Positions 36,428 to 64,000 are shown, counted from the first letter of the stretch. The stretch: DNA of 64,000 nt from an uncultured delta proteobacterium (GCA_963808235.1 CAWEEQ010000004.1:960001-1024000), one strand, 5' to 3'. The notes: generated by a model from the sequence alone, not told the origin. Translations and numbers: made by a program.

Positions 36428-37091
36428 TTACACCCGGCCGCCGATCCAGATCACTCGCCCGATAACCTTCACCATCGGAACCACCATCGGCTTCGTATTT
36501 CGGATTGTCGCTGCGCACCAGCAGCTTGCCGTCGGGTCGCCGCTGGATCCTCTTTACCGTCAACCCGCCGTCATGCCGCAGCAGGTAGATCCCGTCCTGC
36601 TTGAAACGCGGCTCGGCCAGGTTGGCGAGGATCAAGTCCGAATCCTTCACCGTCGGCGCCATCGAATCGCCATCCACTTCGATCAGGAGCAAATCGCGCG
36701 GCTCAGTGTTGAGGCTGCGCTTCACCCACGCGGCGCGAAACGCGACCGAGTCGACCACCTGGTCGCTGCTCAACACTCCCTCGCGCCCGCTCGAAAATCG
36801 AATCCGGTTGCGCGGCATGAAGATATAGTCGCCGTGCTCCATCGCATGCGTGATCGCCGCCGCCGTCTGCTTCGACTCCTCACCCGTCGCCAGCCACTCG
36901 ATCGATACCCGCGCCGCCCGCGCCAGCGAGACCAGGTTGTTCACGCTCGGCTGCCCGCGCCCGGATAGCCATTTGTAAATTGCGTTGTCCGATACTCCGA
37001 CCGCTTTCGCGACCGCCACCACGGAGTCGAATGTGTGAATCACCTGGGTCAGCCGCGCCCGGAATTCTGCCTCAACTATAGTGGTTGACAT
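36428..37091 (-). CDS. phage-type repressor, XRE-HTH plus S24 peptidase (1-nt insertion near 36492)
   Basis: RBS AGGAG; AVAKAVGVSDNAIYKW HTH; GDSM Ser and TVKR Lys dyad; SDNPKY; natural end KVIGRVIWIGGRV* in shifted frame. Confidence 0.88.
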
Positions 37092-37403
37092 ATAACTCCT
37101 TGTGTGAAATAAAGTTCTTAAAGCGCATGTCGTCTCCACAAGCAAATCACCGTCAACTCTCGCCGAAGCTTTTGCTCCCCACGCAGGTCCCCCGCGAATC
37201 TGCTCTCAACCCCATGCATCCTCCCATTCACCCGCCTCGCCGCCTCGATCGCCGATTCTCCCGCCCACACACTTCTAGCCTAGATCGCAGCCGCGCGCGC
37301 GTGGTTTCGTTCACAGTTTTCCACCAACCTCAAGTCCCACCGATCAAATCCGCACTCTTCCCGCTACTCACACTGCTCGATTCTGTTTGTCCGCGGAGGA
37401 TTT

Positions 37404-37625
37404 ATGGAAGCCGCGACCATTCTCGTTCGCACTCGCGTTTCTAATCGCGTCGTTGGATGCCTCTGGTGTCACCAGCCATCCAGTCATTCGGATGTGATTC
37501 GCAATCATGGACTCTGCGCTTCATGCGCCCAGCAGTGCGCGGAGATTTCATGGCGGCTCATCTATGATCGCGATCGCAAAATCGGATCGATTCCCGTAAA
37601 CCTTCGCCTCGCCTACGGCCTATGA
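37404..37625 (+). CDS. small zinc-finger protein
   Basis: Strong RBS GGAGGA; CLWC...CASC; stop overlaps next start (ATGA). Confidence 0.6.
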   Translation: MEAATILVRTRVSNRVVGCLWCHQPSSHSDVIRNHGLCASCAQQCAEISWRLIYDRDRKIGSIPVNLRLAYGL

Positions 37626-38107
37626 ACGCATCGCCCAACTTAAGAGCGGCTGCGAATCGCGTGCACTCGATGCCGCCGAGCGATCCTTTCACTGACGCGG
37701 CGCACTCGTCGCTTTACGATCAGATCGGTCGCTCGATCGGCGCCGATAAGGCGCACAAGCTCATCGCGGATTTCGGCGGCCGGCGTTTGTACATCCCGGT
37801 CGCGCCGGCGCCTGGCGATCGAGTGACGAGTTCGATCGGTCTGGTCGCGGCGCTCGCGATGGCGCGAGTGTTCGGCGGGGATCGCCTGGTGATTCCGGTC
37901 ACGATCGATCATGCGCGCCGCCGCAAGCGAATCTTTGCGCTGCGCGCCAACCACCTGAGCGTCGCGCGCATCGCGCGGCAGCTCCGATGCAGTGAGCGCC
38001 ACGTGTACAAGGTCCTGGCCGAGGGCCGCGATGGCCGTCTCGATTCGACAACGCCCGCGCCGTCCGCGGAGCACTTCAAACGTGGAAGCATCACCGGCCG
38101 TTCATGA
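37622..38107 (+). CDS. Mor/C-family transcription activator (Mu-like)
   Basis: LIADFGGRRLYIP, second FGGDRLVIP, C-terminal HTH IARQLRCSERHVYKVL. Confidence 0.8.
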   Translation: MNASPNLRAAANRVHSMPPSDPFTDAAHSSLYDQIGRSIGADKAHKLIADFGGRRLYIPVAPAPGDRVTSSIGLVAALAMARVFGGDRLVIPVTIDHARRRKRIFALRANHLSVARIARQLRCSERHVYKVLAEGRDGRLDSTTPAPSAEHFKRGSITGRS

Positions 38108-38612
38108 CAAGTACACGCCTGAATTTTTGATCGCCGTCGATCGGGTTCTGTCTAACGAGGGCGGCTACACCTTGGACCCGGCCGACCCGGGCGGCGCGAC
38201 CAAGTTTGGAATCTCCGCGCGCGAGCATCCCGGAGTCGACATCGCGGCGCTGACGCGCGACGCGGCCGTGAACATTTACTGGCGCGATTGGTGGCTCAAG
38301 TTCGGATTCGCGCGCCTGCCGAGCGGCGCGGCGGCCAAGACCTTCGACCTCGCAGTCAATATCGGACCGGCGCACGCGATCGAATGTCTTCAGCGCGCGC
38401 TGCGCGCCTGCGGGCATCGAGTCTCCGAAGATGGCGTCCTCGGCGAAGGGACGGCGCTCGCGGCGGCGCACGCCGATTCTGCGTCTCTGATCGTTGCGCT
38501 TCGATCCGAGGCCGCCGGCTACTACCGGGTCAGCGCCGCGCTCGCACGCGGCCCGCGCGCCAACGCCGACCGCGAATTTCTCGACGGATGGTTAAACAGG
38601 GCCTACGAATGA
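38082..38612 (+). CDS. endolysin, glycosyl hydrolase family 108
   Basis: EGGY..DPADPGGATKFGI, FDLAVNIG, LQRAL..EDGVLG, FLDGWLNRA. Confidence 0.92.
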   Translation: MEASPAVHDKYTPEFLIAVDRVLSNEGGYTLDPADPGGATKFGISAREHPGVDIAALTRDAAVNIYWRDWWLKFGFARLPSGAAAKTFDLAVNIGPAHAIECLQRALRACGHRVSEDGVLGEGTALAAAHADSASLIVALRSEAAGYYRVSAALARGPRANADREFLDGWLNRAYE

Positions 38613-38908
38613 AAACCCGTAAGGAAACTGCCGGTGAGCGCGCCCGCATCAAGCTCGGCCTCTCGCCTCTTCAGCCGGGAGAGGCCGACGCTGCGTCGGG
38701 TGAGGGCGCCGGCATCAACCTGAACGCGCAAGTTGTGCATGATGTCTCGCTTCCTGCACGTTCACTGAAAAAATGCTGCCAGAATCCGAATCTGCCGGCC
38801 GCGCTGGTGCCGGGATTTTGCGCTCTCAAATTCTGCGAACGTCCCCAACTACTGACAAAACGCCGGCTACGGCGCAGGCGCGAGAACGTCGAGCGAGTAC
38901 GAATCTGA
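38609..38908 (+). CDS. small hypothetical protein containing a palindromic repeat
   Basis: ATGA overlap with lysin stop; contains CCTCTC...GGGAGAGG...GGGTGAGGG element. Confidence 0.3.
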   Translation: MKTRKETAGERARIKLGLSPLQPGEADAASGEGAGINLNAQVVHDVSLPARSLKKCCQNPNLPAALVPGFCALKFCERPQLLTKRRLRRRRENVERVRI

Positions 38909-38942
38909 AACGCACGAAACACTGAACCAAGAGGTGAATGAG

Positions 38943-39233
38943 ATGAGCGTAACGGAAATTATCGCCGCGGGTGCGTACCCGCTCGTAGGCCTGGCCGGTT
39001 TTATTTTGGGCTCGCTGTTCGGACAAAAGCTGGTCGCCGATATCGAGGCGATGCTGCACGCGATCGAAGCGCGGCTCACGTCGGTTGAGAGTTCGGTGGC
39101 GACCAGTTCCGCAACCAGCGCGATCATGACTCACGCCGCCGCGACCGAAAAACTCGCGGTCGCCGTCGCCAAGCATTCGGCGGCGCAGGCGCAAGCCGCG
39201 GCCGCATCGAGTGCGCCCGCGGCGAAGAGCTGA
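38943..39233 (+). CDS. small single-TM phage membrane protein
   Basis: RBS GAGGTG; one N-terminal TM then coiled coil; within lysis module. Confidence 0.6.
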   Translation: MSVTEIIAAGAYPLVGLAGFILGSLFGQKLVADIEAMLHAIEARLTSVESSVATSSATSAIMTHAAATEKLAVAVAKHSAAQAQAAAASSAPAAKS

Positions 39234-39238
39234 CCGCG

Positions 39239-39640
39239 ATGCCGGCTCTGTTGATTGCGAACTACTGGAAGCCGATCGCGATCGCGGTCGCGATCGCCGC
39301 GATCTTCGCCTATCGCGCGGTGATTGTTCATCAACGCGACGCGGCGATCGCGTCGGCTGCCGCGCTGACTGCGCAGGTGGCCGACTTGCAAAGCGCGGAA
39401 GCGGCCTGCGAGGCCGCGGTGGCGCGGCAGAACGCGGCGGTCAACGCACTCGCGGATTCGGCCGCGCGCGAATCGGCGGCGGCGCAAACCCGCGAGGCCA
39501 ACGTCGCCGCCGCCGCGGCGAGCACGGCAACGGCCGAAGCGCGCCGCGCGGCCGCGCTCGAGACCGCGCCGATCGCATCGGATTGCGCAGGCGCAATCAA
39601 ATGGGCCAACGCGCAAGCGGCGGACTTGGGCAAATGGTGA
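39239..39640 (+). CDS. i-spanin (Rz-like)
   Basis: N-terminal TM, Ala-rich coiled coil, C-terminal Cys; lysis-module position. Confidence 0.65.
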   Translation: MPALLIANYWKPIAIAVAIAAIFAYRAVIVHQRDAAIASAAALTAQVADLQSAEAACEAAVARQNAAVNALADSAARESAAAQTREANVAAAAASTATAEARRAAALETAPIASDCAGAIKWANAQAADLGKW

Positions 39641-39936
39641 AGGGCGAACGGATGAAAACACAAAATGACATTAGACGATCTGCTTCGCCCTCCCATTGTT
39701 CCGGTTCACCTCTACCGCTGATGGCGACTGCGTCGCCATCAGCGGACCGGGAGAGGTCGTCCGACGACATTAATGTCGTCGGCCGGGTGAGCGCGCCGGT
39801 ATCGAGCGCTCCCGATGGGAGAGGATCGCCTCTTCCCCTCTCCCGATGGGAGAGGATTGAAGGTGAGGGACCTTATTCAGCGCGCGCTTCGCGCGCCATT
39901 CAAGATTCTGCTCTGCTCCGAAGCCTCGCTAAAGTT

Positions 39937-40377
39937 ATGCAAAGCCCTCACGCAGGGAGGGGCAAGACCTGCGGCGATATCTGCGCGCTGCTGCTCGCCT
40001 TTGCACTCACTGGATGCGCGCAAGTTGTGCCGGCGCCGGCGCCGCGCCCCGTGATGGTCGAAGTTCCGGTCGCGACTCCAATCTACTGCCAGGTGCCAAC
40101 CCTGACGCCGCCGGCACTCGCAATCGCGACGCTCAGTCCTGACTCGCCGCCTGCCGATACCGTCCGCTCCTACGCGGCGACAGTGGACATACTGAAAAGC
40201 GCGGTCCACGAACGCGACTCGATTTTGCAAGCCTGCGCCCCTCCATCAGGAACCACCAACCCACCTCCACCCCCAATCCCGCAAGCGAGTATCGCAACAC
40301 CGCCCGCAAAACCAGCGCAAGTGAGTATATCCAGTCGAATACTAACTACGATGCGGAAACTAGTCACATGCTGGTAA
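39937..40377 (+). CDS. o-spanin-like lipoprotein (Rz1-like)
   Basis: LLLAFALTGC lipobox, Pro-rich VEVPVATPIYC..P, later LQAC; longer upstream frame consists of repeat DNA. Confidence 0.65.
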   Translation: MQSPHAGRGKTCGDICALLLAFALTGCAQVVPAPAPRPVMVEVPVATPIYCQVPTLTPPALAIATLSPDSPPADTVRSYAATVDILKSAVHERDSILQACAPPSGTTNPPPPPIPQASIATPPAKPAQVSISSRILTTMRKLVTCW

Positions 40378-40557
40378 CACTCCTCTCCAATAGCCTCTCC
40401 CTGACAGGGAGAGGTCGGCGCGTCGTCTTCGACGCGGCGGGTGAGGGTACTTATTCAAAAGTCGGCATACTCAGATGACATACTCACTAACTATCTCACT
40501 CCTCCCATACGTTTTCTTCGCACTAGGCATAATCGGAGGTTACTACATATTCCGGTC

Positions 40558-40842
40558 ATGAAATTGCTCAATGACATGCTGACCGGGAAAGACAACCTCA
40601 CTTTCGACGCGGCCCGCGTAGTCGGTGTGATCGGCGCGTTTGCCTATATCGCATTCTGGTGCGTGCAGGTCTGGCATATGCGCCGCTTCGAGCCGGCCGA
40701 CGCCGATGCGTACGGCAAGGGCCTCGGGATGGTGCTGCTCGCGATGGCGGGGGCGGTGCTGTTGAAAAAATCGACCGAACCGGAAGTGCGCGCCGAAGAA
40801 GATCGGATGCGCGATCACGACCACGACGGTGCGATGCGATGA
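40558..40842 (+). CDS. holin-like two-TM protein
   Basis: Two hydrophobic helices, charged C-terminus. Confidence 0.55.
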   Translation: MKLLNDMLTGKDNLTFDAARVVGVIGAFAYIAFWCVQVWHMRRFEPADADAYGKGLGMVLLAMAGAVLLKKSTEPEVRAEEDRMRDHDHDGAMR

Positions 40843-41141
40843 GCTGGGAAGCGATCGCATCGTTTTTGCTGGTGCTGGTGACCCTGGTCGGAATCAATAT
40901 CGGAACGATCCGATCGATGCTCGAGCGGCATCGCAGCGCCACCCTGCGCGATTCCGAGAGATGGCAGGAGATTGAGCGCTCGGTGTTCGAATTGCGCGCG
41001 TCGATGCCGCTGGAATACGTGCGGCGCGAGGACTGGATCAGATTCAGCGGCTCGCTCGACGCGAAGCTCGATGCGATGCGGGAAGAAATGCGTGAAGAGA
41101 TCGCAGAGGTAAAGGACAGGTTGTATGCCGGAAGGAATTGA
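40839..41141 (+). CDS. Mu-like gp25-position protein (TM plus coiled coil)
   Basis: MSWEAIASFLLVLV..., PLEYVRREDWIR...LDAKLD typical of Mu-like phages upstream of terminase. Confidence 0.7.
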   Translation: MSWEAIASFLLVLVTLVGINIGTIRSMLERHRSATLRDSERWQEIERSVFELRASMPLEYVRREDWIRFSGSLDAKLDAMREEMREEIAEVKDRLYAGRN

Positions 41142-41439
41142 CCTCGAACAGAAGCGTCGCGAAGAAGCGCGCTGGCGCGTTTTGCGCGTCATCGATGCGG
41201 GGCGGCCGATCGCGGTCTCGGAGCAGATAATCTGGCGTGTGCTGGTGGATATCAAGCTCTCGCTCTCGATCAACGGCATCCGCCGCGAGCTCGCCTATCT
41301 GCGCGACTTGGGCCTGGTCGAACTCGAAGGCGAAGACGGGGAGACCTGGTTCGCCAAACTGACCGCCAGCGGGGTTGACGTGGTCGAGTACAACTTCCCC
41401 GCCCCGGCGGGGGTGGCGCGCCCGCGGAAATACTGGTGA
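41125..41439 (+). CDS. Mu-like gp26 winged-helix protein
   Basis: RWRVL..., IRRELAYL.DLGLV, AKLTASGVDVVEY...GVARP. Confidence 0.8.
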   Translation: MPEGIDLEQKRREEARWRVLRVIDAGRPIAVSEQIIWRVLVDIKLSLSINGIRRELAYLRDLGLVELEGEDGETWFAKLTASGVDVVEYNFPAPAGVARPRKYW

Positions 41440-42062
41440 GGAGTCGCAGGTCCGAGAAAAAAGATCTTGCGCCGGGAGGCAACGGCGAAAAGCTGACGCG
41501 GATTGAGACGCCGGGAAAGATTCGGAGGCTCCCTGAACATATCAAGATCGAGCTGGACCGCCGTCTATCGGCCGGAACTTTTCGCAGTTGGCGGATCTTG
41601 TCGGAATGGCTCGCCGAGAAGGGATACGAGATTTCGCACGCGGCGTTGCACAAGTACGGGAAGAAATTCGATCGGCGGCTGGAATCGATTCGGCTGGCGA
41701 CCGAGCAGGCGCGAATCGTCTGCGAACAGTTCAAGGACGATGACGTGCAGATGCAAAGCGCATTGTTGCGCCTGGTGCAAACGCGGCTGTTCGAGGTGCT
41801 TGCCGCGGTCAACGAAAAGCCAAAGAGAGTGCGTGGCAAGAAGGGCGGCGTCGAGAGCATCGAGAAGGTCGCACCGGTGAATCTCACCGCGCTCGCGCGC
41901 AGCGTGTCGGGACTGGTGAAGGCGGAGACGGAAAATCGGAAGTGGGCGGAGCACGCGCGCGGGGCAGTCGACGAGGCAAAAAAGAAACTCGAAGATGCGC
42001 GCGGCAAGGGGCTGAGCCCCAACACAGCGGATCAAATCAGGGCCGTGTTGATGGAGATTTAG
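41436..42062 (+). CDS. Mu-like gp27 / DUF3486 (terminase small subunit)
   Basis: KIRRLP...ELDRRL, L.EKGYEISHAALHKYG, C-terminal GLS..TADQIR..LMEI. Confidence 0.85.
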   Translation: MRSRRSEKKDLAPGGNGEKLTRIETPGKIRRLPEHIKIELDRRLSAGTFRSWRILSEWLAEKGYEISHAALHKYGKKFDRRLESIRLATEQARIVCEQFKDDDVQMQSALLRLVQTRLFEVLAAVNEKPKRVRGKKGGVESIEKVAPVNLTALARSVSGLVKAETENRKWAEHARGAVDEAKKKLEDARGKGLSPNTADQIRAVLMEI

Positions 42063-42870
42063 TGGTGAGCAGTTTCTTCAGCCGGCACTTCTTTCCTTGT
42101 GTCATTCTGAGCGCAGCGAAGAAACCCGGTGTCCAGGAGAGCGTCGGCATCGAGCTGAATGTGCGCGCCCTTCGGAGCAGCTCGGCTCCGCGTGCCCTAA
42201 GCGAAGTCGAAGTGTATTGCACCGAGAAAGATCCGGGGTTCTTCGCTGCGCTCAGAATGACACAAAAAAAGAGCGCTCCGGGGGTGGGGCTCAGCACGGA
42301 CGTGGCAAATCCGATCAGAGCGGTGTTGATGGAGGTTTAGATTGAATACTCAGTTCATTCAACTTCGCGCTTCTTCTCCTTGTGTCATTCTGAGCGCAGC
42401 GAAGAAACCCGCTGTCCAGGAGAGCGTCGGCATCGAGCTGAATGTGCGCGCCCTTCGGAGCAGCTCGGCTCCGCGTGCCCTAAGCGAAGTCGAAGTGTAT
42501 TGCACCGAGAAAGATCCGGGGTTCTTCGCTGCGCTCAGAATGACACAAAAAAAGAGCGCTCCGGGGGTGGGGCTCAGCACGGACGTGGCAAATCCGATCA
42601 GAGCGGTGTTGATGGAGGTTTAGATTGAATACTCAGTTCATTCAACTTCGCGCTTCTTCTCCTTGTGTCATTCTGAGCGCAGCGAAGAAACCCGGTGTCC
42701 AGGAGAGCGCCGGCATCGAGCTGAATGTACGCGCCCTTCGGAGCAGCTCGGCTCCGCGTGCCCTAAGCGAAGTCGAAGTGTATTGCACCGAGAAAGATCC
42801 GGGGTTCTTCGCTGCGCTCAGAATGAAACAAAAAAAAGGGTGCATCTCGAGCACAGAGGGCGCCAATTGA
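42060..42870. repeat. three tandem 283-bp units, each with an about 165-bp inverted-repeat element
   Basis: TTGTGTCATTCTGAGCGCAGCGAAG recurs with period 283 (matching ORFs start at 42097, 42380, 42663); each copy closes with TTCTTCGCTGCGCTCAGAATGA. Confidence 0.95.
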
Positions 42871-43010
42871 GGAACCTGCGTTCATTTGCGGAGTTGCTGT
42901 TGGCGCGCAACCGGATGCGCGTCGCTTCCACGTCAAGCCGAGCGCACAGCTCGGCGGCCTCGCCGCAAGGCCTGCGGCATCAAACTCGGACCGAAGAGGT
43001 GAAAAAACTC

Positions 43011-43295: not shown

Positions 43296-43324
43296 AGCGG
43301 TGAGCACGCCGGTATCGATTGAAG

Positions 43325-44874: not shown

Positions 44875-45030
44875 ATGCAGATGAATAGCTACTGGAAGTG
44901 GAAATGCGAAGGGTGCGGGTTTGAGTTTCTTCTGACGCTGGTGCGCATTCCCGAACCGTGCCATCGATGCGGCGGCGAATGGTTTCTGAAAATCGGCGAA
45001 GCAGCGAGCAAGGAACATCGCTCAGACTAG
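44875..45030 (+). CDS. 51-aa zinc-ribbon protein (below ORF-track cutoff)
   Basis: Manual translation: MQMNSYWKWKCEGCGFEFLLTLVRIPEPCHRCGGEWFLKIGEAASKEHRSD*. Confidence 0.6.
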   Translation: MQMNSYWKWKCEGCGFEFLLTLVRIPEPCHRCGGEWFLKIGEAASKEHRSD

Positions 45031-45044
45031 ATAATGGAGTGACT

Positions 45045-46430: not shown

Positions 46431-46457
46431 CCCCTTCCCTCGAGGGAAGGGGAACAA
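46417..46457. repeat. inverted copy of the GGGGTTAGGGGTTAGG hairpin repeat
   Basis: AACCTAACCCCTAACCCCTTCCCTCGAGGGAAGGGGAACAA; supplies the portal stop codon. Confidence 0.85.
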
Positions 46458-46486
46458 TCGTATTGGGGGGGCGGAGGATGGATGTG

Positions 46487-47293: not shown

Positions 47294-47335
47294 ATGAAGT
47301 GACTATTAACAACCGGAGATAGTGAGTAATCGCGG

Positions 47336-47372
47336 AACCTAACCCCTAACCCCTTCCCCTAGTGGAAGGGGG
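47336..47372. repeat. second inverted copy of the hairpin repeat
   Basis: AACCTAACCCCTAACCCCTTCCCCTAGTGGAAGGGGG. Confidence 0.85.
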
Positions 47373-47384
47373 ACCGGACTTAAG

Positions 47385-47879: not shown

Positions 47880-48036
47880 TGGTTCCTTGAGTGCAGTGAT
47901 CGACGAAAAGTCGCCATCGTGGAGGTGGTGGCTATTGTGAATGGCACGGGCTTGATAGGCAAGGGAAAAGGAAGAGGCGGCCAGCGCTGGCCGCCTCGAC
48001 GCGGAAGGATTGGCGCGAAAGATTTTGCGCGCGCGA

Positions 48037-52386: not shown

Positions 52387-52409
52387 TGCCGGAATAAAGA
52401 TTCGGTGGT

Positions 52410-52608: not shown

Positions 52609-52838
52609 ACGAGCAAGGGAGCGCATTTGTTCGGGAGATGGTGCTGGGAAACATTTTGATTGGGTGTTGTACACAAAAAGCGTGCATACTGTGCCTTGGG
52701 GAACATGGGGCTCGTTCGGTAACGATGCTGGTGAGTCTATGCTCGTCTTAACACGCTGCGTGGCTGCTTCGTCCGTTTGCCATTGAGGATGCCTAGTATG
52801 GGCGGATGCTACGGGTTCGCGCGCGTCGAGGGGAACCA

Positions 52839-55757: not shown

Positions 55758-55958
55758 GAAGCGCGTGGATGTGATTCTATTTGCTACAGTGTTTTTCCTT
55801 GCGCCAAAACGCGCATGATGGTACTCATTCCCCTGTCCGCGATCATCTGACCACATACCTGATTTGGGGGAATCCCGGCGCCCGCCGCGCCACTTTCGGC
55901 GTCTTCGCTATGAGGTCATAGACGGTCGAGGCGTTTTTCTCGAGGGGAGGATCGTTTC

Positions 55959-58900
55959 ATGGCCAGGGGGACTTCTTCGGTTTCGCGCCACGCGCGGATC
56001 ACGCTCGGGTCGATGGTTGTCGCGGCGACTGCGGTGGTCGCAATCGTAGTTGCTTCATCGAGTCCGGCGAAATTCAAATCACAAATCGCAGCCGCGAACG
56101 TGCAAAGCGCGGCTTCCGATTCGGCTGCCGATAGCGCTGCGATCCAGGCCGAGGAGATCGCGAAGGCCAAGGGCATGATTGCCTCGATGCCGACTTACTT
56201 CGAGGCGAATCGCGGCCAGACCGATCCCAGCGTCCGCTATCTCTCACGCTCGGGACGATACTCGATGTACCTCACCGACGATGCGACGGTCATCTCGATG
56301 GTCGGCGGGACGATTCACAAAAGCCCGCTGCTCGCGAGCTCGAAACTGCAGGCTGAGAAGCTGGTCGAATCGGCGGTGCGAATCCGGATGGTCGGCGCGA
56401 ATCCTCATCCGAAGGTCACAGGCCTGGAACCGCTGCCGGGGCGAATCAACTATCTGATCGGCGATCAGTCGCACTGGCATAGGAACATTCCAACTTACTC
56501 GCGGGTGAAATTCGCGGGCGTCTATCCGGGCGTTGACGTGATCCATTATGGAGTCGGCGACACGCTCGAGGACGACATCGTGGCGGCGCCGCACGCGGAC
56601 GCGTCGCGAATCAAACTTGGGATCGAAGGTAACGCTGATACGTTGATCGACAAGGACGGCAATCTGCAAATTTTGACGCCGGCCGGCGTGGTGGCGATGC
56701 GCAAGCCGAGCATCTATCAGCGCAACCACGACGGCAGCCGCACTTCCGTCGCGGGCTCGTTCGCGCTGTCGAAGGCATCCACGATCGAAAAGGGCGTGCG
56801 ACGACGCGAGGTCGCGATTCAGCTCGCCGCGTACGACCATTCGCGCGAGCTGGTGATCGATCCGGTGGCATCGATCCTGATTTACTCGACCTTCCTGGGC
56901 GGCGGCGCGCAGAACCAGGGCCCGGTGAACCTCGAGCAATTCGGCGGAGTGACCGGCGGGAATGCGATCACGGTTGCGGACACTGGATTGGACGTCGCGC
57001 TCGACTCGACCAATCATGCCTACGTAACCGGCACCGTATACTCGACTAATTTTCCGACTTCCGCGGGCGCGTTCCAGACCACGCTCGGCAGCGCGGGCGT
57101 GGGCTCGACGCCGAATCAGAATCCCAACGCCTATGTCTCGAAATTTGACACCACCGCGGCAGGCGCGGCGTCGCTTGCCTACTCGACCTATATCGGCGCC
57201 GAGGGTAACACCACCGCGCAGGGCACCGGAGACGGCGACCTGGCATTCGGTATCGCGGTGGACGCCAGCGGACAGGCGTTCATCGTCGGGCAGACCTACT
57301 CGGGCAACGCAAATTCGAGCGGGCCGGATTTTCCCGGGGTCGCCTCGTGCGGAACGTTCGGCACCACCGGAAAGAATAACGGCGGCGCCGCGAGCACCAA
57401 CGTCGGCTTCGTAAGCAAAGTGGCGTCGAACGGCGACTCGCTGATTTTTTCCTGCTATATCCCCGGTTCCGAAAACGCCACCGAGTCCCGCGTCGTCCTG
57501 TACCCGGCCGGATGCGGGACCACTACCTGCCAGGCCTACATATCGGGCTCGACCCAAAGCACGGCCGCCCAGGGATGGCCGGTCACCGCTGCGACTGCAT
57601 TCCAAACGGATCTGCTGGCCACCGGCGGCAAGAGCAACGCGACTTTTATCGTGTTGCATCCTGACGCTTCGAAACTCGACTACGCTACCTACTATGGCGG
57701 GAGCGGCAACGGCACGAACGCGGATGCCGGGATCGCCGTCGCGGTTGACGGGAGCGGTAACGGCTACATCACCGGCGCGACATTCTCGAGCGACTTGACG
57801 ACCAAGAACGCCGCATTCACTACCTATGACGGCAATGTGCAATCTCCGCCGACCAGCAACGCCTTCGTCGCTGAATTCAACCCGAACAATACGGGAGCCG
57901 CTTCGCTGATCTACGCCACCTACCTTGGCGGCACCGGCGCGAGCGGCACCATCACCATCACTTCCCCGATATCGCAAAAGATTACGATCAACGTCGGCGA
58001 CATCGGCGATGGAATCATCGTCGATCCTACTACCGGCATCTGGGTGAGCGGTCTGACCGCATCGCTCGACTTTCGCGGCATCCCCGGCAACACCGGCACT
58101 TCCTTCCAATCTCACAACGAAGCCGGAAGCCATACCGATTGCTCCCCCGATAACACCGCGAATCCTCCGGCCACGGCTGTCTTCGCGATGCAACTAAAGA
58201 CGGCCAACGCCGGTTCGGCTCAGGTTCAATATGCCACCTATTTCGGTGGATGCGGCGTCAGGGTGACCGTGCCACCGCCGTTTACCGCAACCGGTTCGCT
58301 CGGATTCGGAGACGCAGGCATCGATCTGAAAGTGCTCGGCAGTAAGATCTACCTTACCGGCGCCACCACCAGCGGCACCAGCGCGGGACATGATTTCCCG
58401 CTCAGCAACAACGCGAAAGCCTGCAACACCCCGTTCCGTCTCGATGACAATCAGAGCGCCGGCCTCGGCATCGGCAATTTCTCCAATATCGTCCCGCTGG
58501 TGGCCTTCGCCAGCGAGCTCGATACCTCGCAGAGTACGCTTGCGAACGAGCTGGTTTTTTCGACCCTGTTAGGCGGGTCCGGGTTAGCCGATATCGGTGG
58601 AGGTCTCGCGGTCGACTCGAACGGGAACATCGTGGTGGCGGGACTCACCTATTCAACTGACTTTCCGATCACGCCCAATGCGTTCCAGTTCAAAAACAAG
58701 GGCAACAATCATAGCTCGACCAACGCATTCCTGACCGTGATCGATCCGACCGGGAGCACCTGTCCGACCCCGTTCCCAACCCCGACTGCATCTCCGACCT
58801 CGACCGGCGTGACGCCGACGCCAACCCCGACCGCGACTGTAACGGCGACCGCATCTGCAACGGCGACCGCGTCCAGGACGGCGACAGCAACCGCGACCTC

Positions 58901-59744
58901 GACTGCAACCGCAAGCAGGACGGCGACAGCAACTGCGACATCGACTGGATCAGCAACGCCGACGGCTACTGCAACCGCAACCAAGACGGCGACAGCAACC
59001 GCGACATCGACCGGATCGGCGACGCCGACCGCAACTGCGACTGCAACCAGGAGTGCGACCGCAACCGCGACGTCGACCGGATCGGCAACGCCGACGGCGA
59101 CTGCAACCGCAAGCAGGACGGCGACAGCAACCGCGACATCGACTGGATCGGCAACGCCGACGGCGACTGCAACTGCGTCCAGAACGGCGACAGCAACTGC
59201 AACGTCGACTGGATCGGTCACGCCGACTGCAACCGCAACTGCGTCCAGGACGGCGACTGCGACCGCGACATCAACTGGATCGGTTACGCCGACCGCGACT
59301 GCAACGGCGACCAGAACGGCGACGGCAACTGCAACGTCGACTGGATCGGTAACACCGACCGCAACCGCGACTGCGACCGCAACGGCAACTCACACGGCGA
59401 CGGCGACTCCAACCATGACTCCAACCGGAGTGCCGCCGCATATCACGGTTGAGCCGCGCAAACTAAAGCTGAAGACCACCGGCGACGCGGCAGTGGACGG
59501 AGAATTCGTGGTCGGCAATACCGGCTCGAGTCCGCTCAATGTGACCATAACCGGGCCCAAGCATAATCCGCCATTCTCGATCTTTAGCGGCAGCGCTTTC
59601 ACGGTCGAGCCGAGCGCGCAAAGCACCGTGATAATCACCTTCGCGCCGAGCAAAAAGGGCACCACGGATGACAAGCTCAATTTCAAGAGCAACGATAAGA
59701 AACATCCGAAGATAAGGGTGAGCCTGATCGGAATATCGAAATGA
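55959..59744 (+). CDS. secreted SBBP-repeat beta-propeller protein with long Thr/Ala stalk and C-terminal Ig-like domain
   Basis: FEANRGQTD, YPGVD, LVIDP..IYSTFLGG, IAVD..G.AY.TG.T.S..FP repeats. Confidence 0.88.
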   Translation: MARGTSSVSRHARITLGSMVVAATAVVAIVVASSSPAKFKSQIAAANVQSAASDSAADSAAIQAEEIAKAKGMIASMPTYFEANRGQTDPSVRYLSRSGRYSMYLTDDATVISMVGGTIHKSPLLASSKLQAEKLVESAVRIRMVGANPHPKVTGLEPLPGRINYLIGDQSHWHRNIPTYSRVKFAGVYPGVDVIHYGVGDTLEDDIVAAPHADASRIKLGIEGNADTLIDKDGNLQILTPAGVVAMRKPSIYQRNHDGSRTSVAGSFALSKASTIEKGVRRREVAIQLAAYDHSRELVIDPVASILIYSTFLGGGAQNQGPVNLEQFGGVTGGNAITVADTGLDVALDSTNHAYVTGTVYSTNFPTSAGAFQTTLGSAGVGSTPNQNPNAYVSKFDTTAAGAASLAYSTYIGAEGNTTAQGTGDGDLAFGIAVDASGQAFIVGQTYSGNANSSGPDFPGVASCGTFGTTGKNNGGAASTNVGFVSKVASNGDSLIFSCYIPGSENATESRVVLYPAGCGTTTCQAYISGSTQSTAAQGWPVTAATAFQTDLLATGGKSNATFIVLHPDASKLDYATYYGGSGNGTNADAGIAVAVDGSGNGYITGATFSSDLTTKNAAFTTYDGNVQSPPTSNAFVAEFNPNNTGAASLIYATYLGGTGASGTITITSPISQKITINVGDIGDGIIVDPTTGIWVSGLTASLDFRGIPGNTGTSFQSHNEAGSHTDCSPDNTANPPATAVFAMQLKTANAGSAQVQYATYFGGCGVRVTVPPPFTATGSLGFGDAGIDLKVLGSKIYLTGATTSGTSAGHDFPLSNNAKACNTPFRLDDNQSAGLGIGNFSNIVPLVAFASELDTSQSTLANELVFSTLLGGSGLADIGGGLAVDSNGNIVVAGLTYSTDFPITPNAFQFKNKGNNHSSTNAFLTVIDPTGSTCPTPFPTPTASPTSTGVTPTPTPTATVTATASATATASRTATATATSTATASRTATATATSTGSATPTATATATKTATATATSTGSATPTATATATRSATATATSTGSATPTATATASRTATATATSTGSATPTATATASRTATATATSTGSVTPTATATASRTATATATSTGSVTPTATATATRTATATATSTGSVTPTATATATATATHTATATPTMTPTGVPPHITVEPRKLKLKTTGDAAVDGEFVVGNTGSSPLNVTITGPKHNPPFSIFSGSAFTVEPSAQSTVIITFAPSKKGTTDDKLNFKSNDKKHPKIRVSLIGISK
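58770..59430 (+). repeat. coding tandem repeat encoding (TATATATSTGS[A/V]TPTATATA[S/T]R)n
   Basis: About 7 units of about 20 aa with synonymous divergence. Confidence 0.9.
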
Positions 59745-59876
59745 TCGTTGCCGGGCAGGCGCGCTAAGCGCGCGCCGAATCAAATCGCGCGCAAAGAGGG
59801 GCGGCCGAACAGCCGCCTCTCTTTTTTCGCTTGTGAGTTTTTCAGTCCCTAACAGACTCCGCGCCCTCTCTTACGA

Positions 59877-59997
59877 TTGTTCCCCTTCCACTAGGGGAAG
59901 GGGTTAGGGGTTAGGTTTGCACGCGTCGTTCGCAAAGCACGCATCGCACGCGTGCGCTTTCCTTATGTCATTCTGAGCGCAGCGAAGAACCCGGATC
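59877..59997. repeat. composite intergenic repeat (as at 32574)
   Basis: TTGTTCCCCTTCCACTAGGGGAAGGGGTTAGGGGTTAGG...CGTTCGCAAAGCACG...TGTCATTCTGAGCGCAGCGAAGAA. Confidence 0.88.
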
Positions 59998-60120
59998 TTT
60001 TTCGACGCTCGCCATCACCACGCCCTGCTGACATTCAGTCAACACGCGCATCGATTCTCCCTCTCCGCGTAGGCCCGCGGCGTCCCATTAGCAACGTTAA
60101 TCTTCCGGATCGCCACGAAA

Positions 60121-60180
60121 GTTCAGGGATGAACTGTTCAGCCTTATGGCTTCCGCGATCGCGGCGCACAATGCCCCTCG
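60121..60180 (+). promoter_or_regulatory. putative activator-dependent late promoter
   Basis: Dyad TGAAC-T-GTTCA (60130-60140) and CACAAT -10-like box (60167-60172) just before protease ATG. Confidence 0.35.
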
Positions 60181-61332
60181 ATGGAAGACCTCATTACACG
60201 CACCGGCGGTGAGCGCGATACGCGGGCGGGCAAACTGATTCCTTCGTTCGTGATCGATACCGCCGGTGCGCCCGCCTCTCAAAAGAATCCCGGAGCCGAC
60301 CAATCCGATCCGTCGGCGCCGGAATGGATCGAGCTGCTCCCGGCCGGGATCTTTTTCGGACGCGACGGCCGCGGACCATTTCGGCTCGACGATCCGGACG
60401 CGGTTATCGAATCCACCGAGGCGCTGCAGATGAATGCGGGCCTGCCGATCGACTACGACCATGCGACCGATTTCGGCGCGCCCGAAGGCCGCCCGGCGCC
60501 GGCCGCGGGATGGATTCGCGAGCTTGCGGTGCGCGACGGAGCGCTCTGGGGGCGGGTCGAATGGACCGCGCGCGCGGCCGATTCGATCGTCGCGCGCGAG
60601 TATCGCTACGTGTCGCCGGTATTCCAGTTCGATCCAAAAAATGGCGCGGTTACCCGTCTCTTGCGGGCCGGTCTGACCAACAATCCAAATTTGCATTTGA
60701 CCGCAATTGCGGCCGCTGAAACGGCGGCCGTCAAGGAAGTGACGATGGAAGTTCCAAGCAATGAAATTCAGGAACTGCGCGAGTTGCTCGGTCTCGACGC
60801 GGACGCGTCGGGCGCCGCCATGATCGCGAGAGTTCGCGAAATATGCGCGGCGTCACGAGCCCCGCAGCTCGCGGCCGGAGCGCATGCGCACGACCCGGCG
60901 CATTACGTGGCGATCGCGGAATTCGAGCGCGCCCTTACCGAGCTCAACGCGCTCAAACTGGAGCGCGCGCGTGAGCGCGCGGCGCACACCGTCGAAGACG
61001 CGATTCGCGCCGGAAAAATCGTGCCCGCACAGCGCGAGTGGGCAATCAGCTACTGCGCCGCGGACCCGCGCGCCTTCGCCGCGTTCGCGAAACGGCAGCC
61101 GTCGATCCTGGGCGGCGATTTGGGACTGGGCGGCGAGCCTCCCGTCGAACGACGGCTCGGGATGCTCAGCGCGGCCGAACTGGTCATTTGCGCGCAGCTC
61201 GGACTCAAGCATTCGGAATTTATTCAACGCAAACGCGGACGCGCCGATTTTCTCAAGCTCGAGCGCGCCGATGCCGATGGCCGCAGCGCGGAATTCCGCA
61301 ACCCCGATTCCCTGAACGACAATCAGGACTAA
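60181..61332 (+). CDS. Mu-like prohead protease I (gp32) with scaffold C-terminus
   Basis: PEWIELLPAG.F.GRDGRG, IDYDH, APAAGWI, VEWT..A, EYRYVSPVF, AGLTNNPNL, GKIVPAQREWA. Confidence 0.93.
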   Translation: MEDLITRTGGERDTRAGKLIPSFVIDTAGAPASQKNPGADQSDPSAPEWIELLPAGIFFGRDGRGPFRLDDPDAVIESTEALQMNAGLPIDYDHATDFGAPEGRPAPAAGWIRELAVRDGALWGRVEWTARAADSIVAREYRYVSPVFQFDPKNGAVTRLLRAGLTNNPNLHLTAIAAAETAAVKEVTMEVPSNEIQELRELLGLDADASGAAMIARVREICAASRAPQLAAGAHAHDPAHYVAIAEFERALTELNALKLERARERAAHTVEDAIRAGKIVPAQREWAISYCAADPRAFAAFAKRQPSILGGDLGLGGEPPVERRLGMLSAAELVICAQLGLKHSEFIQRKRGRADFLKLERADADGRSAEFRNPDSLNDNQD

Positions 61333-61359: not shown

Positions 61360-61842
61360 ATGGCGGCTCTAACCAATTCCCGTAACACGCCCGAGATGGC
61401 CGATGGCGGCAGGATGCGCGTGTATCCGGTCGAGGCCAACACCAACGTTTACTTAGGCAGCATCGTCGCGCTCAACAGTGCGGGCAACGCCGTTCCGGCC
61501 TCCGCGACTACCACCACGGCCAACGCGCTCAAGGTGATCGGCCGCGCCGAGTATGTGAAGAGCGGCATCCCCGGCCAGAACGCGATCAACAACCCGGGCG
61601 CCGCCGGCGCGATTTCGATCACCGCGCGCAAGGGCGTCTTCATGTACTCGACCGACGGATCGGTCGGCGCTGCGCAGGTCGGACTCACCTGCTTTGCGCT
61701 CGACGACAACACCGTCACCGCGGCCGATCGCGCAAGCGGCGCATCGGTGCAGCAATACGCGGCCGCCGGACAGGTGGTTGCGATCGATCCGAGCGGGCAG
61801 GTGTGGGTCGATTTCTGGCATCAGGCAACCGTGACCGCGTAA
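61360..61842 (+). CDS. capsid cement/decoration protein
   Basis: MAALT..RNTP, YPV.A, G.AVPA, VG..CFALDDNTV, AG.VV..D..G.VWV; located between protease and major head. Confidence 0.8.
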   Translation: MAALTNSRNTPEMADGGRMRVYPVEANTNVYLGSIVALNSAGNAVPASATTTTANALKVIGRAEYVKSGIPGQNAINNPGAAGAISITARKGVFMYSTDGSVGAAQVGLTCFALDDNTVTAADRASGASVQQYAAAGQVVAIDPSGQVWVDFWHQATVTA

Positions 61843-61878: not shown

Positions 61879-62823
61879 ATGGAAATCAGTGCTGCGAATC
61901 TGACCGCGTTGTTCACCGGCTTCGACGTAGTTTTCCAGCGTGGATTCGAGAAGCCACCGTCGTACTACGAACAGATAACCTCAGTGGTGCGCTCCGCCTC
62001 GCGCCAGACTACCTATCCATGGCTCGGGCGGACGACCAAGTTCCGCGAATGGCTCGGCGATCGCGTCGTGCAGGCGCTCGAGACCCACGCATACACGATC
62101 GTCAATAAAAATTTCGAAGACACCGTGGCGATCGATCGCAACGATATCGAAGACGATACCTACGGCGCCTACGAGCCGATCATCGAGCAGCTCGGATGGG
62201 ACACCAAGGTTCATCCCGACATGCTGCTCTTCGCGATGATCAAAGACGCGGTCGTAAATCCCACCGATGTCGTCGGCTTCGACGGGGTGCCGTTCTTTTC
62301 CGCCAGCCATCCGGTCGGCCTGATGGGCCAGGCGGGGACCACGGCGGCCAATATCAACACCACCGGCTCGGGACCTTACTGGTACTTGCTCGACGCGTCG
62401 CGGGTGATCCGCCCGTTCATCTTTCAGCTCCGCCGCGAATACGCCGTCACCCGGATGAACACGGTGACCGACGAAGCGGTCTTCAACCGGCGCGAGTTCC
62501 GTTACGGCGTCGACGGGCGCGCAAACACCGGAGTCGGGCTCTGGCAGCTCGCGTACGCAAGCAACACCGATCTCAGCAATCCCGCGAACTACGGTGCGGT
62601 GCGCGCCGCGATGCGCGCGTTCAAGACCGACGCCGGACAGCCCTTCGGCGCATTGTCGAGCCGCACCGGCGTCTACCTGCTGGTCCCGCCCGCGCTCGAA
62701 GAAGTCGCGCGCCAACTTCTGAATTCGGAGTTCATGGCCGGAACCGGCGCCAGCGCATCGGTCTCAACCTCGAACATCTGGCGCAACAGCGCGGACCTCA
62801 TAGTCAGCGAGTTCCTGGCCTAA
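61879..62823 (+). CDS. Mu-like major head subunit gpT
   Basis: YPWLG...FREWLGDR, NKNFEDTVAIDRNDIEDD, FDG.PFF...HP, WYLLD...P.IFQ.R, YGVDGR. Confidence 0.95.
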   Translation: MEISAANLTALFTGFDVVFQRGFEKPPSYYEQITSVVRSASRQTTYPWLGRTTKFREWLGDRVVQALETHAYTIVNKNFEDTVAIDRNDIEDDTYGAYEPIIEQLGWDTKVHPDMLLFAMIKDAVVNPTDVVGFDGVPFFSASHPVGLMGQAGTTAANINTTGSGPYWYLLDASRVIRPFIFQLRREYAVTRMNTVTDEAVFNRREFRYGVDGRANTGVGLWQLAYASNTDLSNPANYGAVRAAMRAFKTDAGQPFGALSSRTGVYLLVPPALEEVARQLLNSEFMAGTGASASVSTSNIWRNSADLIVSEFLA

Positions 62824-62907
62824 AGGGGCATGGCGATGAAACCCGTCTCTATGATCCGGCTTGCCGCGGGTCCCCCTCCTGCTCGCGGCGCCGGAGTTCG
62901 GACCGAC

Positions 62908-62949
62908 TCTTCGCGGGTGCAGACAACCAGTCTCGCACCCGCGGAGAGA
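62908..62949 (+). other. long GC-rich stem-loop between major head and gp36
   Basis: CTCTTCGCGGGTGCAGAC...GTCTCGCACCCGCGGAGAG imperfect inverted repeat; no U-tract. Confidence 0.45.
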
Positions 62950-62985
62950 CCTCTCAGCATCAAGTGAGTATATGAGGCCAATCCA

Positions 62986-63420
62986 GTGAGTTACGCGACC
63001 GCCCAGGATGTGATTAATCGATACCCTAATCGCGATCTCGTCCAACTGACTAATGAAGATCCAACCGCAACTACCGTAAATACAGCGCCGATCACGCAAG
63101 CGCTCGGCGACGCATCTGCGGAAATCGACGGATATATCGAAGGGCGCTTCACGCTCCCGCTGACCGATCCGCCCGCGGTGCTCAACCGGCTCGCGACCGA
63201 TATCGCGATGTACCGGATGCAGTCGCTGCGGCCGCTGCACGACCTCGAAGACGCGCGCAAGCGTTACGAAGACGCGATCGCGATGCTCGCGAAGGTTGCG
63301 TCGGGCGACCTCACCCTCGGCCTCTCCGCCGACGGTCAGGAACCGGCGAATGCCAAAGCGGTCGAAACCGTCGATGGACCCAAACGCGTGTTCAATCGCC
63401 GCAAACTGAAGGGCTACTGA
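62986..63420 (+). CDS. Mu gp36 / DUF1320 head-tail adaptor
   Basis: YAT..D, L.QLT, AL.DASAEIDGY...RF.LPL, DIAMYR, RYEDA...L..VA.G...LG. Confidence 0.92.
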   Translation: MSYATAQDVINRYPNRDLVQLTNEDPTATTVNTAPITQALGDASAEIDGYIEGRFTLPLTDPPAVLNRLATDIAMYRMQSLRPLHDLEDARKRYEDAIAMLAKVASGDLTLGLSADGQEPANAKAVETVDGPKRVFNRRKLKGY

Positions 63421-63421
63421 G

Positions 63422-64000
63422 ATGGGTGTCATGCTCGACTCGCCATGGGCCGGCACTACCTTCGCGCCGCCGACCCCGCTCGACATCGCGACTATCGAAG
63501 CCGCAATCGTCGCGCAACTGCGATCGCAAATTACCGCGATCGAAATCGCGCACTATCCCGACCGTCCCGAGACCTGGCGCATGACCCATCGCGTCGGCGC
63601 GGCGCTCGTGATCTACAAGGGCGCGCAATACGGCGACCTGCTCGACACCGCCGCCGTCATCCAGGAACGCAAGCTCGAGTTCGAAGTGGCGGTGATGATG
63701 CGCGATCTCGGATGGGCGGTGGGTGGCGATGCGTCCGGGCCGAGCCCCGGCGCCTACTCGATCATCGAAAGCATCCGCACCGCTCTGACCGGATTTCAAA
63801 TCGCGGGATGCCGCAAGATGTACCCGCTGCGCGAGAAATTCCTGAAGCGCGACAAGCAAGGCGGCGTCTGGACTTACGCATCGACGTTCGCGCTCACCAC
63901 GATGGCGGTCGAAGGCTCGCCGCCGGAAAATTTCCCGCTCTTCATCAAAGGCATCGCGTTGGAAGAAGGCGGCCTGACCTCGATCGCAGTCGGCGCGGCC
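63422..64000 (+). CDS. Mu gp37-like tail terminator (runs off window)
   Basis: Manual translation: IEAAIVAQLR...HYPDRPE...HRVGAALV.Y.G...QER.LEF.V...GAY..IE.IR.ALTGF....C. Confidence 0.8.
   Translation, partial: MGVMLDSPWAGTTFAPPTPLDIATIEAAIVAQLRSQITAIEIAHYPDRPETWRMTHRVGAALVIYKGAQYGDLLDTAAVIQERKLEFEVAVMMRDLGWAVGGDASGPSPGAYSIIESIRTALTGFQIAGCRKMYPLREKFLKRDKQGGVWTYASTFALTTMAVEGSPPENFPLFIKGIALEEGGLTSIAVGAA

Follow-up and report, generated by a model that had tools for sequence, protein, structure and literature searches.

A Mu-like phage cluster with head, packaging and contractile-tail genes at a fixed locus in Candidatus Binatus: a candidate gene transfer agent or PBSX-like viriform

The subject of this report is a cluster of Mu-like phage genes in the chromosome of Candidatus Binatus (Binataceae). 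The cluster begins within a stretch of 64,000 nucleotides, referred to here as the window (G000:C4:960001-1024000), from a 4.59-Mb assembly of four contigs that is 93% complete. An inspection of this DNA made without database searches (the sequence-only reading) had proposed that the cluster is a domesticated, split particle system resembling a gene transfer agent (GTA). The cluster occupies C4:996428-1034494, a total of 38 kb of which approximately 24 kb is phage-derived, and it ends 10.5 kb past the window edge (C4:1034494, equivalent to window position 74494) with a complete contractile tail module. The related loci used for comparison come from Candidatus Binatus or Binataceae metagenome bins. 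Within the window the cluster consists of a left half, a large insert and the first part of a right half.
35874..36419, plus strand: host DoxX gene at the left flank of the cluster (PF07681)
36428..37091, minus strand: CI/LexA-type repressor (HTH_3 4.7e-9, Peptidase_S24 3.5e-15)
37092..37403, no strand: control region separating the divergently oriented repressor and left operon (by position only)
37404..37625, plus strand: small Cys-rich (CxxC...CxxC) protein of 73 amino acids, first in the left operon (by sequence)
37622..38107, plus strand: Mor/C-family transcription activator (PF08765 2.1e-11)
37992..38612, plus strand: endolysin with GH108 and PG_binding_3 (PF05838 1.3e-20, PF09374)
38613..41141, plus strand: variable lysis-associated region, including the overlapping pair 40441-40842 / 40659-41141
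41125..41439, plus strand: conserved phage protein phrog_436 (PHROG match)
41436..42062, plus strand: Mu gp27 family protein, candidate small terminase (PF11985 6.9e-32)
42094..42942, no strand: three tandem copies of a 283-nt repeat (repeat families D3, D5, D8 and D10)
43319..44860, plus strand: putative large terminase, TerL (phrog_2 1.4e-32)
44958..46430, plus strand: Mu-type portal, Portal_Mu (PF06074 3.7e-105)
46417..59917, no strand: 13.4-kb insert between portal and protease, with an inverted REP2 pair (I2) at 46417-46462 and 59872-59917
60095..60180, plus strand: conserved promoter-like region ahead of the right operon (16 aligned genomes, 4 genera)
60181..61332, plus strand: Mu gpI-type head protease/scaffold (PF10123 4.5e-69)
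61360..61842, plus strand: virion structural protein phrog_1731, the 'cement' protein of the sequence-only reading (PHROG match)
61879..62823, plus strand: Mu gpT-type major head protein (PF10124 1.7e-92)
62986..63420, plus strand: Mu gp36 family protein (PF07030 6.2e-35)
63422..64000, plus strand: gp37/tail terminator, running off the window (Pfam)

The right half continues in the stretch beyond the window (L001, equal to C4:1023001-1043000), where genes were assigned by Pfam/PHROG except as indicated.
L001:1276-2817: sheath
L001:2843-3361: tube
L001:3387-3767: assembly chaperone
L001:4244-5278: tape-measure candidate of 344 amino acids (by its slot between chaperone and gpU)
L001:5295-5873: P2-type gpU
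L001:5870-6112: small hub protein
L001:6113-7126: gpD
L001:7272-7964: V
L001:7968-8384: W (gp25-like)
L001:8419-9591: J
L001:9593-10456: I
L001:10458-10922: protein of 154 amino acids, without assignment
L001:10931-11494: fibre of 187 amino acids with a Gp53-like C-terminus

Analysis of the left half confirmed that the terminase, portal and lysin genes have open frames, and the same holds for the protease, cement, major head and gp36 genes to the right, all as first described. The gp27 and gp37 genes are likewise open. The repressor is interrupted in the window by a 1-nt frameshift near 36488. This is probably an assembly indel, since a 365-nt short-read contig of run X1 (depth 3.7, one contig) is identical over 36252-36617 except for one letter fewer at 36488, and since 44 of 50 related loci hold a full repressor frame of 205-235 amino acids with the expected S24 C-terminus. 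The catalytic serine is kept in 38 of these 44 full-length relatives, as is the catalytic lysine in 38 of 44. The distance from the repressor start to Mor is 530 nt, with a control region of 313 nt, and the distance from the repressor stop to the DoxX stop is 8 nt. These measurements agree with the description of a repressor that abuts DoxX and lies about 530 bp from Mor. The sole open reading frame (ORF) between repressor and Mor encodes the 73-amino-acid Cys-rich (zinc-finger) protein, which bears out the statement that there is no room for ner, MuA, MuB, gam or the semi-essential region. This small protein returned no significant Pfam or PHROG match and is kept in relatives; among distant Binataceae, a protein with a DnaA_C-type helix-turn-helix replaces it in two of six loci (L059:2724-3119 and L091:1355-1795).

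The true start of the endolysin is probably near 38.1 kb, and the overlapping pair that follows, which includes a lipoprotein matching phrog_462 (1.1e-13), is likely a spanin pair. The phrog_436 protein is covered to at least 85% in 68 of the 68 loci having a match. The gp27 family protein is a candidate small terminase by comparison with an annotated phage record. Searches with TerL against Pfam, at thresholds as loose as E 0.1, and against PDB sequences gave no match; its PHROG terminase match and the constraint on its gene suggest the assignment as large terminase. The portal has 237 relatives in species genomes and is 39-43% identical to the portals of the nearest cultured Mu-like phages.

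The tail module encodes a full P2/Mu-type contractile tail with a complete baseplate. The sequence-only reading had pointed to the next stretch as the place to look for tail genes, and there they were found complete and intact. Their order is colinear in 20 of 20 compared genomes, lesions apart. The tape-measure candidate and the 94-amino-acid ORF that precedes it gave no Pfam or PHROG match. The fibre is the most divergent tail protein, with a median identity of 55% versus 84% for its neighbour.

In phage Mu, a C-dependent promoter lies before gene I. Conservation across 16 genomes of 4 genera extends over the 85 nt ahead of the protease start, which contain an 8-1-8 dyad at 60127-60143, GGCTGAAC-N-GTTCAGCC, that is perfect apart from one mismatch in this genome and is followed by TTAT and a CACAAT-like box. 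A search of the rest of the cluster with up to 4 mismatches returned one chance-like site only, which lies inside the insert. The exact 17-mer is present in 46 of 165 family genomes. Within the genus it was found in 33 of 46 genomes, at least 24 of which have a copy approximately 1.75 kb upstream of gpT that is often the sole copy in the genome; elsewhere it occurs in 11 of 11 genomes of genus g44, with 12-39 copies each, and in one of three genomes of g42. We infer from these features that the dyad region is an activator-dependent late promoter of the right operon and that the Mor-family activator may bind the dyad.

The cluster is embedded tightly between host genes. To its left lie genes for a carboxyltransferase, a glutathione transferase and DoxX; to its right, 7 nt beyond the last cluster gene, a Mur ligase is encoded on the minus strand (L001:11502-12944), followed by purine and amino-acid genes. 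Carboxyltransferase and/or DoxX stand upstream of the repressor in 15 of the 21 same-genus loci that reach it (coverage above 50%), and the other six gave no left-flank match at that threshold. The left flank of G062 is the same as that of the window (carboxyltransferase/DoxX). On the right, the Mur ligase is the very next gene after the fibre in G019, G008, G011, G059, G061 and G004, and in G017, G006, G062 and the g44 genomes G174 and G176 it lies 2.6-4 kb further on; the stretches of six other genomes end before the right flank. These results answer the earlier call for orthologs at a syntenic locus, which are present across the genus and widely in the family. The palindromic repeats noted earlier in host intergenic DNA at 32.6-32.7 kb, REP1 and REP2, both recur within the cluster, and they are dispersed host repeats with 39 (up to 2 mismatches) and 11 genomic copies, respectively.

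Functions for mobility are absent from the locus. The rve family had no match in the whole assembly, and PF04233 (Mu F, gp30) and PF05069 (gpG) had none anywhere in its 4.59 Mb, which extends the observation that gp30 and gp31 (G) are missing from their usual place. The outermost genes lie 7-8 nt from host genes, which leaves no room for attachment (att) ends at the locus, and therefore no ends for a transposase to act on. Six distant loci had no transposase between repressor and Mor, and the neighbours of the repressor there are host genes; no transposase was found near the divergent elements of G068, G155 and G114 either. The genome-wide search for MuA and MuB that the sequence-only reading had asked for gave a divided answer, with neither gene at the locus and one pair in an unrelated remnant on contig C2.
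C2:3928-6916: MuA and MuB pair (Pfam)

DDE_2 and MuB matches in the assembly are confined to this contig. The MuA protein has 717 amino acids with DDE_2 (1.9e-47), HTH_Tnp_Mu_2 and Mu-transpos_C, and the MuB protein has 281 amino acids with AAA_22 and Phage-MuB_C (6e-17). The remnant spans C2:2989-16182 (L113, L003), between genes for a sigma-54 activator and an amidase, and also encodes a repressor-like protein 36% identical to that of the cluster, an 878-amino-acid lectin/pectate-lyase-like protein, a Kelch protein and a 652-amino-acid PhageMin_Tail (tape-measure-type) protein. It is flanked by host genes, and no head genes or other relatives of cluster proteins were found in it. Relatives of its MuA, 35-44% identical, occur in 15 of 165 family genomes and in six of the 46 other species in the genus. 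This distribution is patchy, as for ordinary prophages, and contrasts with that of the cluster. The C2 element is best regarded as the remnant of a separate Mu-like phage and not as the missing part of the cluster.

To describe the distribution of the cluster, gpT was used as its marker. It is present in 121 of 165 Binataceae species genomes (77 of 96 high-quality genomes), in all 46 other species of the genus and in 22 of 30 genera. The gene is mostly single-copy with 75-95% identity, and five genomes carry far more divergent copies at 55-66%. TerL gave a similar count (124 of 165), in which four matches from genus g18 belong to other phages because they are partial and only 31-32% identical. 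Outside the family, an even draw across the phylum yielded gpT in 15 of 297 genomes, at no more than 45% identity. In family f20 of the same phylum, a Mu-type gpT is present in seven of eight genomes at 41-45% identity to that of the cluster. The IMG/VR database holds 110 fragments with 76-95% gpT identity; these were considered as free phages and rejected, as the fragments are short pieces of the same kind of element.

A gpT protein tree was built from 70 genomes of 20 genera, with at least two species per genus where possible; second copies, genes that were split or partial and genomes flagged as unpublished were excluded, and the tree came from a quick search with support from the Shimodaira-Hasegawa-like approximate likelihood-ratio test (SH-aLRT) only. 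Every genus falls on one side of a branch, and the tree needs 19 changes of genus label, which is the minimum. Shuffled genus labels needed a mean of 46.1 changes, and none of 200 shuffles was as low as 19. The sequence-only reading had recommended comparing a terminase/gpT tree with the species tree, and the gpT tree agrees with the taxonomy. Identity of gpT and identity of RecA to the window are correlated across 96 genomes (Spearman 0.84), a value that is descriptive only because related genomes are not independent.

The ratio of nonsynonymous to synonymous substitution rates (dN/dS) was calculated pairwise against the window by the Nei-Gojobori method. The right half was compared with eight same-genus genomes (of 12, four being left out of the table) and the left half with nine loci chosen for carrying host flank. 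Values ranged from 0.04 to 0.39 in the right half and from 0.09 to 0.49 in the left half. The lowest belong to head and tail genes (tube 0.04-0.08, gpT 0.05-0.07, sheath 0.09-0.16, J 0.09-0.15, phrog_1731 virion protein 0.09-0.17, gp36 0.10-0.15), together with the phrog_436 protein (0.09-0.11), portal (0.10-0.15) and TerL (0.11-0.17). Intermediate values were obtained for the repressor (0.17-0.22), protease (0.19-0.22), 73-amino-acid Cys-rich protein (0.14-0.26), lysin (0.18-0.30) and gp27 (0.19-0.35), and the highest for the fibre (0.14-0.38), tape measure (0.39, one comparison) and Mor (0.29-0.49). Host neighbours gave 0.09-0.16 (carboxyltransferase), 0.14-0.20 (AIR carboxylase), 0.19-0.25 (Mur ligase) and 0.32-0.39 (DoxX). 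Purifying selection acts on all the genes for regulation, lysis, packaging, head and tail, including in genomes where rearrangement has moved the two halves far apart. Synonymous divergence (dS) from the closest species is 0.35-0.79 for cluster genes and 0.33 and 0.63 for host genes; from other species of the genus it is approximately 0.5-1.8 and 0.6-1.0, respectively, and beyond the genus it is saturated. As the dS of the cluster lies in the range of its host neighbours, it has diverged for as long as the surrounding chromosome and has done so under constraint.

The insert that separates the halves in the window carries variable, envelope-type ORFs as cargo, among which the following were distinguished.
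46487-47293, minus strand: methyltransferase (Pfam)
47385-47879, minus strand: lipoprotein (N-terminal sequence)
48037-48699, minus strand: membrane protein (N-terminal sequence)
52806-55757, plus strand: NHL-repeat protein (Pfam)
55959-59744, plus strand: DUF7948 protein (Pfam)

The insert holds no phage replication or integration gene. The methyltransferase, lipoprotein and membrane protein genes, the latter two without Pfam or PHROG match, are kept beside the portal in several genera and have dN/dS values of 0.15-0.32. Comparison of genomes revealed that the separation is graded. TerL and gpT are only about 3.5-3.9 kb apart, with the portal followed directly by the protease, in genera g29, g31, g33, g43 and g46, and 6.7-38 kb apart in g1, g20, g26, g30, g34, g40 and g44. 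The halves lie on opposite strands at a distance of 41 kb in G075 and of 1.25 Mb, on a single contig, in G006; in G174 and G148, both near-complete, each half is on a contig of its own. Because the split recurs in many independent assemblies and in graded forms, it is genuine and not a misassembly, a condition that the sequence-only reading had left to be checked. Contiguous genera form one clade of the gpT tree (12 rows) and genera with an insert belong to its sister clade (53 rows), and this arrangement is consistent with a single initial insertion, followed by growth and rearrangement of the insert. The contiguous lineages, in which the portal-protease gap is about 200 nt, also lack gp30 and gpG, so the loss of these genes is older than the split. 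One genome, G095, has terminase and gpT matches only about 640 nt apart (G095:C43:10909-13920), and may therefore have lost portal and protease at this place; its contig C16 also carries a real Mu-like prophage, with MuA and a 34%-identical terminase.

The results are best accounted for by an immobile, vertically inherited descendant of a Mu-like myophage that is kept as a particle-producing system, either a candidate GTA or a PBSX-like viriform. We assign this interpretation, including the working model below, a probability of roughly 0.6. That the cluster is a domesticated and selected system is more likely than this whole statement, and we consider it probable. The genomic tests described above all support domestication and thereby the earlier view of a long-resident, selected module. 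The data fit a single ancient exaptation of a Mu-like myophage. The constraint on terminase, portal and capsid indicates that filled heads matter and sets the system apart from tailocins, and the fast evolution of the fibre suggests that particles meet target cells. Whether such particles transfer DNA is more doubtful, and we would put it somewhat short of an even chance. PBSX also needs filled heads, and sequence therefore cannot separate gene transfer from killing.

In the working model, the CI/LexA-like repressor would silence the left operon, which comprises the zinc-finger protein, Mor, lysis, small and large terminase and portal genes. Loss of the repressor, most likely via RecA-stimulated self-cleavage in a few cells, would allow Mor to be made, and Mor would act in trans on the dyad promoter before the protease-capsid-tail operon. 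Because activation by Mor would occur in trans, the halves would not need to adjoin. In transposable phages, transposition is the sole mode of replication, and the packaged DNA includes host DNA at its ends. Since this element cannot copy itself and has no Mu ends, its heads would be filled from the chromosome, the terminase packaging chromosomal DNA by the headful mechanism. Lysis would then release short-tailed contractile particles, whose fast-evolving fibre would select the target cells to which DNA would be delivered. A more specific proposal is offered tentatively, as we consider it less likely to be right than wrong: the cluster may represent an undescribed GTA family of Binataceae, exapted once from a transposable Mu-like myophage before most genera diverged. 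It would be the first GTA of transposable-phage origin and the first genetically defined one with a contractile tail. Its two trans-coupled operons would permit the genome to pull the halves apart, and the dyad copies that have multiplied before host genes in some lineages (6 extra here, 12-39 in g44) would wire those genes into the switch for particle production.

Several observations weigh against the interpretation of a maintained particle system. No gpT was found in 44 of the 165 family genomes or in eight of the 30 genera, and all compared genomes are metagenome bins, many of them based on long reads that introduce indels. Some copies of the cluster are damaged. G017 has lost everything from mid-tube to mid-J. 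G062 lacks the portal between TerL and the methyltransferase, and its TerL, gpT, sheath, gpD, J and I frames are broken; as the cargo genes are broken too, some of these breaks may be long-read errors. G003 and G062 share the position at which their gpT gene is split. The tape-measure slot (L001:3767-5295) varies from about 0.07 to 2.5 kb across genomes and is empty in G069 (g20), G075 (g25), G174 and G176 (g44) and G068 (g19). These genomes keep the rest of the tail module, and we cannot explain how tails form in them. Both gp30 (F) and gpG are absent in all lineages examined, though active relatives have them. The capacity of the Mu head is about 39 kb, and a head of that size could hold the whole contiguous cluster of about 24 kb; in G006, with its halves 1.25 Mb apart, both cannot fit one head. 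Control appears to lie with a phage-type repressor and no known host regulator, and the catalytic serine and lysine of this repressor are each replaced in six of the 44 full-length relatives. In this genome the exact dyad also occurs six more times, ahead of unrelated host genes, and the binding of Mor to the dyad is a proposal only.

The same domesticated cluster could serve as a PBSX-type killer, in which DNA-filled particles do not transfer DNA, contractile tails kill competing strains and transfer is not the selected function. PBSX itself forms small heads with about 13 kb of host DNA and kills without DNA injection. The contractile tail with its full baseplate, the fast-evolving fibre, the single conserved locus across related species and the SOS-type repressor control all accord with such a role, and available excerpts of PMC12946183 cite PBSX as GTA-like and as packaging chromosomal fragments of 13.4 kb. 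Against it can be set the dN/dS values of 0.05-0.17 for terminase, portal and capsid, which imply that filled heads matter, but the same is equally true of PBSX. We regard this function as unlikely, though with a real share of the probability. If the cluster were instead a cryptic prophage remnant with decaying structural genes, retained fortuitously or because one gene is useful (for instance the repressor, for immunity), this would explain the damaged copies in G017, G062 and perhaps G003, the absence from eight of 30 genera, the missing tape-measure gene in several genera and the loss of F and G. This reading is nevertheless improbable, because about 30 genes remain open with dN/dS values of 0.04-0.49 at a within-genus dS that reaches 0.5-1.8, gene order is kept in 20 of 20 compared genomes and both halves survive their separation. 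These values also answer the dN/dS check suggested at the outset, with dS like that of host neighbours.

An element that still moves, as a phage or as a satellite mobilised in trans by a helper MuA/MuB, would have a possible helper in the C2 pair, whose MuA and MuB ORFs are intact and accompanied by their own repressor. Such an element would not be expected to have the same flanks in many species, with 7-8 nt to the host genes and no ends. As to the proposed helper, only six of 46 species in the genus have a MuA (35-44% identity), and the C2 element has no head genes and a repressor with 36% identity to that of the cluster. We consider mobility very improbable. An assembly or binning artefact could in principle produce both the split and the missing early region, as metagenome bins are the source of all genomes, one indel error or more is present in the window and some contigs end inside the insert, such as that of G004, whose left half is not in the assembly. 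The same repressor-Mor junction and the same portal-insert-protease layout nevertheless occur in dozens of independent assemblies, with the length of the insert graded by clade, and short-read contigs from four runs of two studies match the left half (the listed pieces are 199-1048 nt long and do not bridge the insert). An artefact is thus hardly credible.

Comparison with known systems places the cluster between several of them. It resembles the GTAs (RcGTA, BaGTA and BhGTA viriforms) in its tailed-phage proteins, endogenised state, absence of a replication module, vertical inheritance and purifying selection, as well as in that genes can occupy more than one locus and release by lysis is implied. 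It differs in its ancestor, which had a Mu-like head and a contractile P2/Mu-type tail, whereas the tail of RcGTA is non-contractile. It also differs in its control, apparently exerted by a CI/LexA-type repressor and Mor and not by the known host regulators. The particles of BaGTA and BhGTA have non-contractile tails or none (PMC9662315, in part), and the host described here is an uncultured soil bacterium outside the taxa named in the available parts of PMC9662315 and PMC12946183. The definition given in the excerpted text of PMC9662315 comprises proteins derived from tailed phages, packaging of random host DNA, endogenisation often over several loci, a head too small for the element's own genome, vertical inheritance and delivery of DNA. 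From this set, phage-derived parts (recognised from genes by Pfam/PHROG), endogenisation across loci and vertical co-diversification are found in the Binataceae cluster.

At the gene level, the cluster resembles PBSX as a non-infectious set of head and contractile-tail genes kept at one locus across related species. Like the Bacillus element, it is contractile-tailed, head-bearing, defective and repressor-controlled; unlike it, the cluster consists of Mu-type, apparently unrelated gene families, belongs to another phylum and is split or dispersed in several lineages. R-type tailocins of the pyocin R2 type likewise have a domesticated contractile tail, a variable fibre and SOS-type control, but they lack capsid and packaging genes, and here the terminase, portal, protease and capsid are among the best conserved. 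Among phages, the Shewanella phage vB_SspM_MuM16-2 (MZ568828.1) has the same order of repressor (minus strand), Mor, lysozyme, small and large terminase and portal (39% identity), and onward of protease I, capsid, gp36, gp37, sheath, tube, assembly protein, tape measure, baseplate and fibre. In contrast to the cluster, this phage has Ner, a DDE transposase, an AAA+ transposition protein and, from MuB to Mor, some 5 kb filled with small early genes, as well as gp30 (virion morphogenesis), gpG and a Mu-type DNA circulation protein. Where the phage encodes the circulation protein, the cluster has proteins of the P2 gpU, hub and gpD types; it also has no ends, a fixed locus, a tape measure of 344 versus about 580 amino acids and a fibre of 187 amino acids. 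Of the features of Mu phages, late regulation and the head module are present (Mor/C, gp27, gp28, gp29, gpI, gpT and gp36), and MuA/MuB beside the repressor and terminal att sites with variable insertion are absent.

If the interpretation as a Mu-derived GTA is true, transposable phages can be exapted too, a contractile-tail design is added to the known set of GTAs, and a route of gene exchange or strain warfare would exist for abundant uncultured soil and peat bacteria. The graded series from contiguous to insert-bearing, inverted and megabase-separated arrangements is a natural record of the dispersal of a cluster while it stays co-regulated. According to available parts of PMC9662315 and PMC12946183, few independent domestications of phages into GTAs are known and most well-studied ones are from Alphaproteobacteria. 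The excerpts returned by a literature search described no Mu-derived GTA and no such element in Binatia, in line with the sequence-only reading, which knew of none.

The extra dyad copies of this genome are located at C2:78205, C3:43415, C4:1106969, C4:1563796, C4:2511344 and C4:3809134. Four of these six share a common context of about 70 nt, and from the extra copies and this shared context the dyad segment also behaves as a dispersed repeat. They may reflect small-repeat-like spread of the promoter segment or the site of a host regulator. An SOS box was considered and rejected, as recA (C4:3337997) is not among the places of the six extra exact matches, as was a sigma-54 site, for which the spacing does not match by eye.

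Minor features of the window include a swap cassette at 38613-40658, between the lysin and the spanin-like pair. Its version in the window matches G062 and other genera and not most same-genus loci, as was also found for the ORFs at 38934-39233 and 39239-39640. ORF 42663-43295 gave no Pfam or PHROG match. In the gp27-terminase gap, each 283-nt unit contains a pair of REP1 palindromes and repeats the terminal 55 nt of the gp27 gene (its 3' end), and the small ORFs at 42094-42942 are products of the repeat. Runs with periods of 18 and 24 nt occur at 58753-59478 and 55305-55450, towards the 3' ends of the DUF7948 and NHL genes and ahead of their Ig-like domains, and resemble repetitive linkers common to both cargo proteins.

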